From the sequence record NC_052655.1: a stretch of 64,000 bases of DNA; one strand, 5' to 3'. Source of the DNA: Escherichia phage alia. Shown here in pieces: positions 13,475 to 58,258 of this stretch; within the stretch, counting starts at the first letter, position 1, and every line of letters starts with the position of its first letter. The notes beneath the pieces were generated by a model. It was not told the DNA's origin and searched no databases. It saw only the letters and a list, made by a program, of their open reading frames with translations. The position numbers and the translations under genes were made by a program.

Positions 13475-14147
13475 ATTTTTGAGCCTCCTCATAAGAGATA
13501 AAAGTTTTACCATTGCGAAGATCCTCCAGGGATTGTTTATATTGTTCCCAGTTTACACCAATCCCCTGTTCTTTCTCTTCTTTTGACAGATTCGCAAAAG
13601 GTAAAGGATTGTCTCCAAATACATCATCAGGATGGATAAACGCCATAATTCGAATAGGACATGGCACGCCTTGAATACCTCGGTTCAAACCTGCCAGTGG
13701 AACGCGATGAATCCACTCTGCATCTTCATATCCATAACCGTGGGTGTATGAGCGGAAATAGCCAGCTTTCTCAATAACTGCACGGGAATACATACCAAAC
13801 TGGCACATACCTAGTTCCCAAATAACCACTTCCCCTTCAATACCTTTTACTTTATCTTTAAAGTATTCAGGCATACCAAAGAAATCCCAACCATTTTCCT
13901 TCGCCTGTTTTACAAAATATGTTTCCCAACCTTGAACAACAGGATAGCAATCATCATCAAAAATAAACCAGTAATCATACCCTTCATCATAAAACTTTTT
14001 CATCAGTTCATTACGAGCATATGCAACACCTTTTCGCTCCCGATCATACTGCACAACAAAAGTAGCATTAGGATCAGTCACAAGATAATCTTTAAGAGGA
14101 CGCTTACCTACAGTAATAACACCAACACCAATTTTTGTATTTTCCAA
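13461..14147 (-). CDS. putative glycosyltransferase, GT-A-like
   Basis: Possible DxD motif in 'WFIFDDDCYP'; 228 aa. Confidence 0.4.
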   Translation of the reverse strand: MENTKIGVGVITVGKRPLKDYLVTDPNATFVVQYDRERKGVAYARNELMKKFYDEGYDYWFIFDDDCYPVVQGWETYFVKQAKENGWDFFGMPEYFKDKVKGIEGEVVIWELGMCQFGMYSRAVIEKAGYFRSYTHGYGYEDAEWIHRVPLAGLNRGIQGVPCPIRIMAFIHPDDVFGDNPLPFANLSKEEKEQGIGVNWEQYKQSLEDLRNGKTFISYEEAQKYGKS

Positions 14148-44768: not shown

Positions 44769-44983
44769 TATTTTGAAAATTTTTATTTCTATAAAAAGGG
44801 GTGTGGGTTTCATGTACGGAAATTCACCCTCTGCACAGTATATCCAGAGTAAGTAGTATTCTGTACTCTGTTAATAAAGTATTTAATTTGTTTGTTGGAT
44901 TATGGTAGCTGATCTTTAAAAGGCATACTATCTCTTAACTACTACTTATAACAGAACAGTAAAATCGTTTTTATAAAAAGGAC

Positions 44984-45191
44984 AAAATTATTTAAAGTTT
45001 TTACAGATTTTTGGATACAAATTTTGAAAATGAAAAGTTCAAGTTTGGTCAAAATTATTTAAAGTTTTTGTACGTATTTCTATCCAGATTTTGAAAATGA
45101 AAACTTCAATTTTTTAAAAATTCCCCAGTTTATTTAAAGTTTTTTTGCCTTTTTCCGTAGAAAAATCAAAAATGAAAAGTTCAATTTCGTG
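44984..45191. repeat. three tandem ~67-bp direct repeats
   Basis: Units starting near 44984, 45051 and 45129, each '(A)AAATTATTTAAAGTTTTT-(N20-30)-GAAAATGAAAA(G/C)TTCAA'; AT-rich, non-coding. Confidence 0.7.
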
Positions 45192-45208
45192 TTTTTATAG
45201 GTATGCGT

Positions 45209-45319
45209 ATGATAATCATTCTCATTTGTAAATGAGAATCATTATCATTTAATTATGTAAGTGATAATCATTCTCAGTAAGAGAATGAGAATCATTAGCA
45301 AATGAGAATTTTCTCATTT
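45209..45319. promoter_or_regulatory. cluster of three Fur-box-like palindromes
   Basis: 'TGATAATCATTCTCATTTG-TA-AATGAGAATCATTATCA', 'GATAATCATTCTCA...GAGAATGAGAATCATTA' and 'AATGAGAA-TT-TTCTCATT'; core GATAATCATT matches the Fur-box half-site. Confidence 0.45.
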
Positions 45320-45580
45320 AGAGAATAACGCGCAGGGGCGGTGTTTGTCTCGCGCTCCCGTGTCCCCTCGCCATACAATAAGAATAGCATAACCAACAAC
45401 AAAAGCAAGCGATTATTTTTATCTTTACATTTCTTTACAAATTTATTTTAGACGAGCTACCGGCGATCAACCTTCCAACCAGTGCCCCCTGGTATGTTAG
45501 CCCCGCCTTTACGCCGTGGGGGTGGCGCTTCCTCTTCTGTATGTAAAACAGTATAAGCCCGATCCCTGGGCTTGTCAAGA

Positions 45581-45847
45581 TTATTTTTTGTTTTCTTGCC
45601 AGGATAGGACACCTAACCAAAAATACATGTCGCCCCGCGCCCCTGGCGGGATCTTGCTTTCCCCGCCGCCACTGCAAGCCCATAGATAACCATTAGCGAA
45701 CGGATCAAAATGATCTATTTCTTCCACCTTATAATCGCCCAGGTTGAGAACGGTTTCAACCTTTAAGCCCGTTGCGCTTGCTACCTGGTGCACCGTGCCG
45801 CCTTGCCAGCCCAATGAGTGCATGAGATGTAAAGGAGTATTTGTCAT
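45581..45847 (-). CDS. candidate small ORF inside a GC-rich island
   Basis: 88-aa ORF ('MTNTPLHLMHSLGWQGGTVHQV...') in a clearly more GC-rich stretch (about 45330-46100); several overlapping minus-strand ORFs make the coding call uncertain. Confidence 0.3.
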   Translation of the reverse strand: MTNTPLHLMHSLGWQGGTVHQVASATGLKVETVLNLGDYKVEEIDHFDPFANGYLWACSGGGESKIPPGARGDMYFWLGVLSWQENKK

Positions 45848-46217
45848 GGTATCGCCCTTTCTTTGATGTGCGCCCTGGTTGGCGCGGTAGAAAGATAATA
45901 GCCGTTTCCTTTATAGATAGCAAGCAAAAAAGAAATGAAAAAAGATTAAAAAAATGGTTGACGTTCCTCACCTGGTAGCGTAGTATTCATCTTGTCGAGG
46001 GGGGCGAGGCACAACGACAATAAACAAAAGGAGGGCGCAATGTAGGACGGGCAAAGGTGAGGATCTCCACAATCCACCGTCACAATAACATTACTTATAA
46101 AAGGTTGATAACGATGATCAAGAAAGAAAACAGCTTGACGGTTGGAACGATTAACGCTATCATTCTTGCCGTTCCATTTTGGGTTGTAGTAGCGGTTATT
46201 ATTTTTAAAAAATATTC

Positions 46218-46275
46218 TTGACAACGTTTTTTAATCTGATAAGATGTATCACATAGGGCGGCAATAGTGCCGCTC
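46218..46275 (+). promoter_or_regulatory. promoter + 5' stem-loop module
   Basis: TTGACA-N16-TAAGAT followed by 'CACATAGGGCGGCAATAGTGCCGCTC' (stem GCGGCA/TGCCGC), 22 nt upstream of the ATG. Confidence 0.6.
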
Positions 46276-46297
46276 ATAACAGAAGAGAGAAATAATC

Positions 46298-54990: not shown

Positions 54991-55335
54991 GTATTCTTTT
55001 TTCACGATGGAAACAACACGTAAAGAATAGGCGTAAAGGTGGCGTAAAACAGTCTAAAACCGATTATAACCGCTTAAACAAGGTAACAATGACTAATCAC
55101 CTTGCCAGGATGAAAAAGCTGTTAGAAAGCTGTTTAGAGCGTTTAAAGCACATAGGAAATAACTTGCTTTTTATCTTGCCTTTTATCCTGCTTTTGATTA
55201 TTATTATGGAACGGGCGGCACCTGGGGACAGGGGAAGATAATCACCGGAAGATCTTATCATATATTGATAGCTTCCCCCTATCAAACAACAAAACATTAA
55301 AGAGATAAACTATCAAATCTTTACAATCCTACCTA

Positions 55336-55736: not shown

Positions 55737-56120
55737 ATGAGCAATATCATCAACCTGGCGGCTACTGTAAACGGTAAAGATTTTAACGGCGCTGTAGATC
55801 GTGATCCTATGTGGTGCTTATCAGTGTTTAAAGGCGATCTGGTTGAAGTTAGAACAACCGAAGGGTATAGCGATGATTATAAATGCGAGATCCATTTACA
55901 TAACTGGTACACGGGTAAAACTTATGCGCTGAATCATGCGTTTATCGGGAAAATTGAATATCGCGAGATGATCGACGAAGAAACGGGGCAAGATTTTAGC
56001 GAGCATGTTTATATTCGTTCAGAAACATTAGCCGAACGTTTGATCGAGAAAATGAAAGCAAAAAATAAAATTAATTTATCTCATTGGATTGATATAACAA
56101 ACGATCCGGCTTATCAGTAA
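55737..56120 (+). CDS. hypothetical small protein (cassette gene)
   Basis: Start at 'MSNIINLA' (track start 55662) with a GAGGAAA RBS. Confidence 0.5.
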   Translation: MSNIINLAATVNGKDFNGAVDRDPMWCLSVFKGDLVEVRTTEGYSDDYKCEIHLHNWYTGKTYALNHAFIGKIEYREMIDEETGQDFSEHVYIRSETLAERLIEKMKAKNKINLSHWIDITNDPAYQ

Positions 56121-56136
56121 ATAACATTTCATACAA

Positions 56137-56162
56137 GGGCGCTTATTGCGCCCTTTCTTTTT
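56137..56162 (+). terminator. intrinsic terminator (GGGCGC-ttatt-GCGCCC-TTTCTTTTT)
   Basis: Third copy of the GGGCGC/GCGCCC stem; closes the cassette region. Confidence 0.65.
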
Positions 56163-56364
56163 ACCTAAATAAAGATGATAGCTTTTACCTATCAAAAACG
56201 TTCACCGAAAAAAGTGAATAGATCGCGGTATCGAGCTAATCAAGGAGCAGATGAACAACCATACCATGAAGATCATAAGGCGCTTACAGCGTGTTTTAGA
56301 CCGCTTATTTTTAATTTCTTCATGTAACTATCTGGCAAAAACAGCCTTTTTCTTGTCTTTCCTC

Positions 56365-56445
56365 TTAAATGATAATCATTCTTATTTATAGCTGATTATT
56401 TATGCAATAAACTGCATAATGCAATAATGATAATCATTCTTAACT
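56365..56445. promoter_or_regulatory. Fur-box-like repeats
   Basis: Two copies of 'AATGATAATCATTCTTA' separated by about 40 nt. Confidence 0.4.
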
Positions 56446-56819
56446 TAAGACCATCTAACTTATAAAATAATAAGTTATCTAACTAAATTAAAGCTAATTA
56501 TCTTACTTTTATTTATAACATACTGTTACTATCTTATTGATAACCTTATATTAAACAACAATAATCAATGTAAATCATTACTAAGCTAACTATAATCTAT
56601 CTAACCCTTAAAACTACAATTATAATCTATCAAATTGTTGCACAAAGTAACTATTAAATTGTTAGTAACATTGCTAAATAATTAATATCCTATCTATTTA
56701 TGATCTAATCTTTACCTCCCTATCTATTACCTAAATAACCATTTCATGTGGTAATCATTTCATACAATAACTATAACAAGAAATATAATTCGCAAGCGTA
56801 TCATTAGCAGCCTATGCCG

Positions 56820-56985
56820 GACACATAGGCGGCTAATAATAACGCAACTACACACCCCACATAATAACCATCACCGATAGTTATTATTTGTGCTTATGTA
56901 GCTTGCAACAATTGCAAGCGCAACAATATACATGGTATATTGTATCCCTTACATTGTTGCGGTGCGTTATTATTAGCTAATGTTT
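56820..56985. repeat. inverted repeats around a TTGCAA-caa-TTGCAA palindrome
   Basis: 'GCTAATAATAACGCA' with its reverse complement 'GCGTTATTATTAGC' about 130 nt away; central 'GCTTGCAA-caa-TTGCAAGC'; hairpin 'GCCTATG-ccggaca-CATAGGC'. Confidence 0.5.
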
Positions 56986-57282
56986 AGAACATTGGCTATA
57001 ATATAAGCTAAGTAATAAGCTAGTCAATAATAAACATAATGAATAATGACATTAATGATCATAATGCGCCACCCTCCAGGGGGCGCTATGTGAACACAAA
57101 GAAATCATTCTTGTCAAGAAAAATATCACCCTATTGCGCAAAATTATTTATATCTGAATAGATGATTTTTCATACTATTGCCCCCTATAACATACCTCAT
57201 TTGTTGAGCCTACTTTCTTAAAAGCGCAATAAAGTAGAATTATCTTGATTTTTAGTCGGTTTTATAGTACAGAAAGTATGCA

Positions 57283-57298
57283 AATGATAATCATTATC
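57283..57298. promoter_or_regulatory. near-consensus Fur box
   Basis: 'AATGATAATCATTATC' matches 16 of 19 positions of GATAATGATAATCATTATC. Confidence 0.45.
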
Positions 57299-57462
57299 AG
57301 CTATCCTCCAGGGTGGCACTATTTCACGCCAGATCATTTCATTTGGCAAGGTGTATATAGATGTTTAGAAATGCCAAGCCATTGATTTACTTAGAATTTA
57401 TCTGTTTTGTTGTGAGTAGTACCTTTCTTGCTTAGAAAATAATCAAAAGTCTTATAAGTCAT

Positions 57463-57498
57463 TGAATGATAATGCAAATGATAATTATTCTCATTGAT
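57463..57498. promoter_or_regulatory. Fur-box-like hexamer array
   Basis: 'TGAATGATAATGCAAATGATAATTATTCTCATTGAT'. Confidence 0.4.
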
Positions 57499-57940
57499 AT
57501 TTGAGGGGGACGGTCGGCAGAAATCGGGGGGCGCTGAAAATCGCGTTAAGCACCTCTCGCAAGCGAGCAGTATTTTGCGGCAAGTTATTGATATTATTGA
57601 CTTTACGCTTATGAAAAGGGGTGTGTCGAAATAAATCGGGTATACCGGAAAATTTTTTGTGGCATAGATATTTATTTGTCTATATTATGTACAAAGGGGT
57701 GTGTTAAAAATAATAGGTATATATAGAATAATTGATAGGGAAATCCTATACTAAATCCTTCATTAATGATGTTCCTATGTTGCTGTTCTTGTAACAGATG
57801 AAAAGACGCTGTATGATGTGTAGCATGAGACGTAAATTTATAAGATGCAAATAATGCTTGCATTGAATAGAAATGTCTGTACACTGTGTTCCATAAGATA
57901 TGCAATATCGCGCATAACAAACTACTAATGAGAGGTGTAA

Positions 57941-58258
57941 ATGAGAACCTTAGCTTTGTATATTGATCCTCACTCCATTCGAGAAATGCGAGATGTACAA
58001 CAGGATTATGAATTCTACCCAGAAATTTGTGAACGCTATGAAACTATTCTTAGTTCTGTAGAAGATCCAGATACTAGTGAAACAGGTGCTTCCCACTTAC
58101 TGTGGATGTTGAATGAAATTCAGGATGGGTGTAATGATATGTCTGAAACCAAACGCCATCGTTGGCTAGGCTATATTCAGGGTGTTATGGTTATGAAAAA
58201 CCTTATTACAGTGAACGATGAACGTAACGCTACACGCCCCGTCTTTAATGGAGCATAA
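57941..58258 (+). CDS. hypothetical protein (first gene of a coupled operon)
   Basis: 105 aa; GAGAGG RBS. Confidence 0.5.
   Translation: MRTLALYIDPHSIREMRDVQQDYEFYPEICERYETILSSVEDPDTSETGASHLLWMLNEIQDGCNDMSETKRHRWLGYIQGVMVMKNLITVNDERNATRPVFNGA

Follow-up and report, generated by a model that had tools for sequence, protein, structure and literature searches.

The gap after the gp248 homologue of Escherichia phage alia: a probable phi92-type genome terminus with Fur-type boxes and a covarying multi-hairpin element

In Escherichia phage alia (sequence record NC_052655.1), a gap of 1820 bp separates the stop codon of the Phi92_gp248 homologue (position 56120) from the next ATG (57941). We consider it very probable that this gap, which occupies 56121-57940 of the window (the whole stretch of 64,000 nt that was analysed, to which all positions refer), is the genome-terminus, or concatemer-junction, region of a phi92-like myovirus. 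It contains a direct terminal repeat (DTR). Left of the repeat is the non-coding tail of the right arm, made up of a terminator, Fur-type boxes, a G-poor spacer and a multi-hairpin element; right of it is the leader of the first left-end genes. The preliminary description of this DNA had called the region AT-rich, which agrees with a GC content of 32.1% in the gap versus 37.7% in the whole window, and of 22.7% in the 360-bp core 56440-56800. The features that frame the gap are as follows.

55737-56120: Phi92_gp248 homologue (PHROG 1507, unknown function)
56135-56155, plus strand: intrinsic terminator AAGGGCGC-TTATT-GCGCCCTT with a T run, ending the right-arm operon after the gp248 homologue
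57207-57548: DTR of 342 bp, single copy in the assembly, recognised by homology to the phi92 DTR
57549-57940, plus strand: left-end leader of the first early gene, just after the repeat

Judged from its sequence, the window comes from a Justusliebigvirus, a phi92-like myovirus. A megablast search with 56100-58000 matched 96 phage records, 42 of them with one aligned place covering at least 80% of the query, and identity was ~92-97% among the top matches listed. Escherichia phages of the genus Justusliebigvirus (phi92-like, Stephanstirmvirinae) account for nearly all of these, arall, inny, Paula and phi92 included. Some 60 Justusliebigvirus records match the whole length of the region at 93-97% identity. 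A more sensitive search brought the total to 137 records, adding Phapecoctavirus and unclassified Klebsiella phages, which match parts of the region at 70-80% identity. The equivalent stretch in every annotated relative is a gene-free gap of ~1.5-1.8 kb that comes after the Phi92_gp248 homologue and an intrinsic terminator. Between genera, six blocks of the gap are 70-85% conserved, and the sequence of 56440-56800 and 56985-57200 is unconserved. Four records named as Campylobacter phages of host C. jejuni (MG065639, MG065645, MG065656 and MG065689; phages A150, A145, C3 and A110a) share 96.6-96.8% identity with the region; they are probably mislabelled or contaminant coliphage genomes.

The terminal repeat itself is already annotated in relatives. 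The phi92 record (NC_023693 / FR775895) carries PHI92_DTR-L at 1-343 and PHI92_DTR-R at 148270-148612, between gp248 and gp001, gp248 being the last gene before the right terminal repeat. Both copies align to 57207-57548 with ~97% identity. The same 343-bp repeat is annotated in Salmonella phage UAB_1, and in both phages the DTR sequence matches two places in the record. At least seven records are linearised at exactly the base equivalent to 57207, and the record of phage BME3 (PP239276) has its first base at the equivalent of 57547 and its last at that of 57207. For BME3, a 342-bp DTR was determined by PhageTerm (PMC12210895). In the Phapecoctavirus Schickermooser, the record begins and ends with an exact repeat of 329 bp whose edges are homologous to those of phi92; the terminal repeat of this phage has been given as 328 bp (PMC6563267). 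By homology, 57207-57548 is the phi92-type DTR and genome terminus, and its edges are the predicted packaging cut sites. A packaging site was among the roles proposed at the outset, and it gains support from the physical ends of the relatives, whose 329-343-bp DTRs map to these positions. The window contains one copy of the repeat; therefore the assembly was closed through it, and the region is where the right and left genome arms join. On the side of the BME3 record, its DTR-L feature is drawn with an offset of ~70 nt, mapping to 57279-57620, and its 3' end carries a rearranged duplicate (57843 to 56815, then 57620 to 57207). Both look like artefacts of assembly or annotation.

The edges of the repeat were compared across 12 lineages: Justusliebigvirus, AMO3598, three Phapecoctavirus types, two KP2025-like Klebsiella phages and five metagenome or IMG/VR lineages. 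In the present phage the left edge reads ..CATTTGTTG|AGCCTAC.. and the right edge ..AAAATCGCGTTA|AGCACC.., and each edge 8-mer occurs once in the window. All 12 lineages keep a left edge of the form ..TGTTG|AGC(A/C).. and a right edge of the form GAAAAT(T)CGCGTTA|AGCAC.., at a distance from each other of 328-411 bp. The GTTR|AGC common to both edges fits a single nuclease acting at both. Just outside the left edge, the motif (T)ATTTGTTG is present in three copies in AMO3598 (locus L015, ~2395-2445), in two in phi92 (~2610-2670) and in one in the window; the other lineages have a small hairpin of variable sequence 5-8 nt before the cut site. Either the motif or the hairpin could be part of what the terminase recognises.

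The repeat is not uniform inside. Alignment of its interior in 11 of the 12 lineages brought out a series of conserved blocks, two of which hold Fur-type boxes. The Fur box is described either as the 19-bp GATAATGATAATCATTATC or as the 7-1-7 palindrome TGATAATnATTATCA, and among phages the known example is the stx1 promoter of Stx1 prophages. With the two further boxes that lie behind the terminator, the elements are as follows.

56370 and 56428 (block 56365-56442): Fur-type boxes 1 and 2 (TGATAATCATTCTTA), flanking the palindrome TTATGCA-N6-TGCATAA at 56400-56419
57243-57269, plus strand: block TCTTGAyTT..TTT..GTA near the left end, -35-like; a candidate early promoter, the -10 being weak in this phage
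57285-57299: Fur-type box 3, TGATAATCATTATCA, a perfect 7-1-7 palindrome with 17/19 matches to GATAATGATAATCATTATC, 78 nt from the left end
57343-57377: 35-bp palindrome TTGGCA..N..TGCCAA
57375-57387, minus strand: IHF-consensus site WATCAANNNNTTR (plus strand ATTGATTTAy), overlapping the 35-bp palindrome
57455-57506, plus strand: the most conserved block of the repeat, TAAGTyATTGAATG, overlapping Fur-type hexamers and then CATTGATATTTG; a candidate rightward promoter (TTGAAT at 57462, GATATT at 57496) overlapped by an operator
57479-57493: Fur-type box 4, TGATAATTATTCTCA, within the block 57455-57506

The Fur-like sites mentioned in the preliminary description are real and highly non-random. 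Allowing two mismatches at most, the 7-1-7 palindrome occurs nine times in the 64 kb, where 0.79 would be expected (~11-fold enrichment), and none of 100 shuffles reached nine. Eight of the nine matches fall in the two largest non-coding gaps, four of them in 56121-57940, and all sites with at least 15/19 matches to GATAATGATAATCATTATC are confined to these two gaps. Measured against the palindrome, the box at 57285 has no mismatch (15/15), that at 57479 one, and those at 56370 and 56428 two each. In the second gap, four boxes stand in tandem at 45210-45300, and a fifth copy, more degenerate, takes the array on to 45316. In Phapecoctavirus, KP2025-like and metagenomic lineages, where the flanks are only ~70% identical, the boxes keep their places too: ~250 nt beyond the stop codon of gp248, ~77 nt in from the left edge and ~70 nt in from the right edge; box 3 is retained as TGAnAAnnnTTnTCA in all 11 aligned lineages. 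Fur-like boxes stand after the gp248 homologue in the rV5-like phage TH18 as well. Box 2 overlaps a weak promoter-like TTAACT-17-TAAAAT (56440-56468), and box 4 overlaps weak promoter-like matches TTGAAT-17-TATTCT / GATATT.

One consensus across phage genera whose hosts share Fur is most simply a host-factor site, and the boxes most likely bind host Fur, as far as sequence can indicate. A tblastn search for a Fur homologue in this phage subfamily found none, and literature searches yielded no relevant work on Fur boxes in these phages or on their transcriptomes. Like enterobacterial Fur boxes, those described here are perfect or near-perfect matches, form overlapping hexamer arrays and have an AT-rich, promoter-like location. 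Unlike the known ones, these predicted sites belong to a virulent phage, lie in or beside a terminal repeat and in a second gap, and have no iron-related gene downstream.

The second large non-coding gap (44769-46297) is conserved in 144 phage records and has features of its own. It contains a 67-bp tandem repeat of ~2 copies at 44983-45113 (TRF), with a possible partial copy to ~45190 by eye, and a small minus-strand open reading frame (ORF) of 88 aa at 45581-45847. A near-consensus minus-strand promoter, TTGACA-17-TATACT (45578-45550), reads towards a GC-rich stretch and the Fur-type array.

The boxes might instead be targets of a protein made by the phage itself (a terminase small subunit or an early repressor), and form with the IHF site a packaging complex akin to lambda cosB, in which the IHF site I1 lies between the terminase-binding R sites. 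Two of the boxes stand at fixed distances from the cut sites (~76-78 and ~69-75 nt) with a conserved IHF consensus between them, and the central box bases vary by lineage, e.g. TGAGAAGGATTCTCA. The IHF core consensus is kept in the lineages where it was read, its four free bases (NNNN) varying, and the site inside the repeat is a predicted IHF binding site on that ground. The likeness to cosB thus includes a conserved IHF consensus between two conserved boxes near packaging cut sites. The differences are that the repeat is duplicated rather than cohesive-ended, that the spacing is ~190 bp vs ~50 bp, and that the boxes resemble host Fur sites. Against a phage protein, the same consensus occurs away from the ends, at 56370, at 56428 and in the five-box array 45210-45316. 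Moreover, it is constant across genera and even in Vequintavirinae, whereas a phage protein's site would be free to drift, and one box is a perfect Fur 7-1-7 palindrome with 17/19 matches to the classical Fur box. We thus regard a phage-encoded binder as unlikely, and retain host Fur as the preferred reading.

Left of the repeat lies the best-conserved non-coding block, 56800-56980, with ~80% identity to Phapecoctavirus. It coincides with an element of ~180 nt, which has the following parts.

56803-56985, minus strand the probable folded strand: conserved multi-hairpin element
56810-56830: hairpin, part of the element
56832-56846 (GCTAATAATAACGCA) with 56963-56977 (TGCGTTATTATTAGC): 15-bp closing stem, 15/15 paired, arms 116 nt apart
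~56858-56890: inner variable hairpin, part of the element
56901-56919: palindrome hairpin with an invariant 8 bp, containing TTGCAACAATTGCAA at 56903-56917

The preliminary description had noticed an inverted repeat pair around a TTGCAA palindrome, and both components proved sound: the arms pair along their full length, an inverted repeat comparable to this stem appears in 6 of 3000 shuffles, and the palindrome falls at 56903-56917. The element was aligned in 19 distinct sequences. On the minus strand the consensus has 45 pairs, 98.4% paired, of which 11 show compensatory double changes, and the covariation score exceeds that of 500/500 shuffles and of all slid controls. One pair takes the forms U·G, U-A, C-G and G-C in different lineages, and phage arall, which lies outside the search pattern, shows, within the AT-rich part of the closing stem, a pair independently switched from A-U to U-A. 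Among the metagenome sequences, the invariance of the stem is partly ascertainment by the search pattern; the database phages were chosen otherwise. By these data the element has a conserved secondary structure with compensatory changes, as would be expected of a structured non-coding RNA of a new family.

Compared with shuffles, folding is far better on either strand. Of the two, the minus strand is the more stable in 19/19 sequences (~-72 to -84 vs -55 to -66 kcal/mol) and has the more negative z-score in 18/19, and its G·U pairs occupy ~7-9 positions vs one A·C position. The stability and the G·U pairs favour a folded minus strand, as a leftward transcript or as single-stranded DNA. An alternative minus-strand helix rivals the palindrome hairpin and also covaries. 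Also, ATTAGC/GCTAAT and the longer ATCATTAGCA recur around the element in all lineages (here 56803-56808, 56832-56837 and 56972-56982); these motifs permit alternative pairings, or might instead be a repeated protein-binding motif. In TH18 an analogous 16-bp inverted repeat, GTTAACAATTTTGCAA..TTGCAAAATTGTTAAC, occupies the same place. With a covariance model (R1), each phage locus gave a single copy, and the window gave no second one. No E. coli homologue of the element was found in 5,426 genomes. Searching GTDB genomes with the arm pattern gave 12 matches, all rejected as chance, being in unrelated AT-rich taxa and lacking the core; about half of the metagenome and IMG/VR matches were also rejected as chance.

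Should the left part of the gap be a non-coding RNA gene, an RNA of ~180-200 nt would run leftwards from 56990-57000 through 56803 and act in trans, as a regulator or as a packaging or terminase cofactor in loose analogy with the pRNA of phi29 (RF00044), which is encoded next to a genome end. The covariation, which includes the long-range stem, argues for a folded single strand, and the energies, z-scores and G·U pairs given above single out the minus strand. In addition, 6-7 of 12 lineages have a minus-strand -10-like hexamer at the first arm or immediately ahead of it, a promoter-like TTGACT-16-TATATT is found at 57027-57000 just upstream of the element in this phage, and the element is single-copy per genome without a host homologue. 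However, no Rfam family matched up to E = 10, no intrinsic terminator is seen behind the last hairpin, and the promoter position is unconserved. A terminator conserved across lineages was also sought for a minus-strand RNA, and none was found. The compensatory changes are all from Watson-Crick to Watson-Crick and would fit single-stranded DNA equally, the G depletion of the plus strand could bias the mismatch types, and a search of the literature for expression data found none. Like phi29 pRNA, the element is of ~170-190 nt, has a multi-helix fold and is encoded near a genome end; unlike it, there is no Rfam match to E = 10 (taking pRNA to be among the families searched), and the phage family and packaging chemistry are unrelated. 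Weighing both sides, we hold a trans-acting RNA to be a real but minority possibility, and keep the genome-terminus reading, under which the element may have a role in end processing or regulation.

The structured element directly adjoins the G-depleted spacer, and the two together bear on another proposal of the preliminary description, namely that the gap is a replication origin.

56443-56802: G-depleted spacer, ~6% G on the plus strand, 23% GC

Over ~330 nt before the element the sequence is unconserved, and the plus strand is G-depleted in 11/11 lineages (G 4-12%, C 15-24%, vs a background G of 21%). As an origin, the AT-rich spacer 56440-56800 would be opened as an unwinding element or by a transcript forming an R-loop, and the hairpin element would be the fold of a primer RNA, in the style of ColE1 RNA II or of T4 oriF/oriG; such a function is compatible with the terminus reading. 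The spacer has the lowest GC nearby (22.7%), its strand asymmetry is kept in 11 lineages without sequence conservation, the element adjoins it, and the minus-strand promoter-like site at 57027-57000 lies just upstream of the element. On the other hand, no DnaA boxes were found in the region, and no repeat family behaves as iterons, the best candidate being three 17-nt copies of 82-88% identity that are unconserved in Phapecoctavirus. The only large GC-skew turn in the window, the cumulative minimum, is at ~40 kb, because transcription diverges there: ORFs are on the minus strand up to 40036 and on the plus strand from 40057, and the skew flips sign at this change of direction. In rV5 the skew inflection likewise lies where transcription diverges (PMC3606486). 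Furthermore, the Phapecoctavirus spacer is A/C-rich rather than AT-rich, and a minus-strand RNA would be U-rich and poor at forming stable R-loops. The origin proposal thus received no positive evidence (no DnaA boxes, conserved iterons or local skew turn), and we judge it improbable that the region is mainly an origin. A plus-strand transcript of the spacer, G-poor and with C over G, would be unstructured and Rho-friendly, which would fit an insulator behind the terminator.

The remaining parts of the right-arm tail are shorter. The terminator listed above is annotated also in Paula, phAPEC8 and Schickermooser, and is followed by a palindromic box.

56176-56194: palindromic box TGATAG-N7-CTATCA, with a second perfect copy at 55266-55284 and a related copy at 57733-57751

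With up to two mismatches this box occurs seven times in the window vs 3.4 expected, which is weakly significant. The copy at 56176 is kept in Phapecoctavirus ukendt and, in a variant form, in Vequintavirinae TH18; the box is a candidate operator. The gap of TH18 itself (locus L062, 3490-5120) is a gene-free stretch of 1.6 kb after the gp248 homologue, with the same terminator and box and with Fur-like boxes, then 4-5 repeats of ATTGTGTC and a short hairpin. The architecture is therefore older than the split of the subfamilies.

Regarding the preliminary description of short repeats and coding capacity, most points stood and one stood in part. First, the direct repeat placed at ~55270 and 56176 is the pair of perfect TGATAG-N7-CTATCA copies. 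Second, of the 13-mer CCTCCAGGGkGGC said to recur, it is CCTCCAGGG that recurs, at 57073 and 57305 and also at 13523 (a family of 72% over 36 nt), while the 13-mer misfits the first copy and the case is weak; CCTCCAGGG is unconserved outside the genus and is therefore probably chance or a local, lineage-specific duplication. Third, no convincing ORF is present on either strand. The longest in the gap are of 50 aa (plus strand) and 82 aa (minus strand, 57672-57920), the latter intact in one of nine close relatives. In tblastn against 15 distant relatives, run without a valid positive control (the gp248 query was one base off, the correct frame being 55737-56120), only a 30-aa ORF was intact in several (6/15, ~60-67% identity), and it overlies the strongly conserved right repeat edge; one further ORF was intact in two loci and another in one. 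This result, together with the annotated records that likewise leave the gap empty, is the reason for assigning no conserved ORF. A conserved gene in homologues was looked for and none was found, and the repeats were checked in relatives; both outcomes favour the description. Scanning the window for tRNA and tmRNA gave none, and Rfam gave no family at the gathering score in the whole window and, in the region, only chance-level matches up to E = 10.

Could the region be a decayed or non-functional spacer, its repeats the product of chance in AT-rich sequence? The lack of conservation of 56440-56800 and 56985-57200 between genera would agree with this, as would CCTCCAGGG and some short repeats, which are at chance level. 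The six conserved blocks (70-85% between genera), the rarity of the inverted repeat (6/3000 shuffles), the covariation in the hairpin element, the ~11-fold enrichment of Fur-type boxes and the repeat edges kept in 12 lineages all speak against it. Being contradicted by the conservation data, decay is very hard to credit, and the genome-terminus reading is followed below.

Right of the repeat, the leader contains the following.

57597: TTGACT
57615-57646 and 57693-57724: two copies of AAAGGGGTGTGT..AAAtAAt..GGTATA
57733: TGATAGGGAAATCCTATAC, a TGATAGGGAA box
57899: palindrome TATGCAATATCGCGCATAA, shared with 56400-56419
57930: ribosome-binding site GAGAGG

The length of the gap varies among strains because extra genes are present or absent at an insertion hot spot, 57842/57843: many relatives (inny, Paula, phAPEC8, phiWec186) have 2-3 extra small genes (phAPEC8_0018/0019-like) here, and the present phage and arall have none. 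As to promoters, the region has 25 promoter-like matches vs 21.2 in shuffles, i.e. no enrichment, and therefore no firm promoters were assigned. The idea of a regulatory hub is nevertheless plausible, as the terminator, palindromes, Fur-type boxes, IHF consensus and promoter-like blocks are kept across genera.

On this basis we propose how the region might work. The terminase would recognise the conserved sequence around the edges GTTG|AGC and GTTA|AGC, and would cut the concatemer at both edges of a single junction copy, such that each packaged genome receives the repeat at both ends; the repeat would have to be duplicated during packaging, as in T7-type phages. A host-factor-assisted nucleoprotein complex, suggested by the conserved IHF consensus and the two conserved palindromic boxes in the repeat, would be shaped there by IHF and the box-binding protein. 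After injection, the repeat and leader would supply promoters for host RNA polymerase, from which early transcription would proceed rightwards. Fur occupancy would couple this transcription to iron status, and the boxes on replicated DNA could titrate Fur. The multi-hairpin element would work in single-stranded, folded form, either in cis or as an RNA; a leftward (minus-strand) transcript is the likeliest candidate.

Several points weigh against this scheme. The DTR edges in this phage were placed by homology, since the window contains one repeat copy, and several of the records may merely copy the phi92 start coordinate. Fur binding is deduced from sequence, a phage protein with a similar palindromic target would fit too, and no strong sigma-70 promoter overlaps boxes 1-3; the count of promoter-like matches, moreover, does not exceed that in shuffles. 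For the element, the G·U asymmetry may partly stem from a G-depleting mutation bias of the plus strand, paired inverted protein-binding sites could mimic some of the covariation, and no conserved promoter or terminator delimits an RNA.

Parallels from other phages help to place the arrangement. The terminal repeats of T7 and T3 are short and exact, with fixed ends; the early promoters of these phages face inward from the left end, and the repeat has to be duplicated in packaging. A right-end hairpin intermediate in the processing of their concatemer junctions was reportedly described by Chung, Nardone and Hinkle in 1990. The present phage resembles them in its short exact repeat with fixed ends and in an inverted repeat a few hundred bp left of the right-hand repeat, and would share with them the inward-reading early promoters and the need for duplication. 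It differs in being a myovirus with an unrelated genome, in a repeat of 342 bp vs ~160-230 bp, and in a hairpin element that, rather than being a simple palindrome, forms a conserved, branched and covarying fold, and whose link to packaging is hypothetical. We also know of no phage RNA polymerase in this phage type, unlike T7/T3. With the DTRs of phi92, UAB_1, BME3 and Schickermooser there is nothing essential different: they are homologous (~97%), of 342-343 bp, and share the edges and the position between the gp248 homologue and the left-end genes, this assembly having one copy and lacking the two small genes after 57842.

The identity of the phi92-type terminal-repeat junction is thus already known from public annotation, and the region is therefore explained rather than new. 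The phi92-type records annotate the repeat only, the boxes and the hairpin element being unannotated, and the Fur-type operator arrays, the IHF site and the covarying element appear, as far as could be determined, to be undescribed. Going one step further, the terminus of phi92-like, and related rV5-like, phages might be an iron-sensing control and packaging module, accompanied by a minus-strand RNA of ~180 nt encoded 230 bp from the repeat. This extension is tentative, and we lean towards doubting it. If it were true, the Fur operator arrays in and beside the repeat and in the second gap would make early transcription iron-responsive, and ~9 or more boxes per replicated genome would titrate Fur and derepress host iron uptake, as in the Fur-titration assay; the derepressed uptake could feed iron-dependent enzymes, e.g. 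ribonucleotide reductases.

For annotators, placing the physical ends means that the gap is not a missing gene, and that circularly closed assemblies of these coliphages, which are widely used therapeutic candidates, conceal a terminal repeat of 342 bp. If the conserved Fur-type sites of this strictly virulent phage are indeed operators, they would tie early development or host iron metabolism to iron availability, a link of consequence for the gut, the blood and phage therapy. Next to the packaging site, the covarying hairpin element could represent a new phage RNA or a single-stranded-DNA signal.

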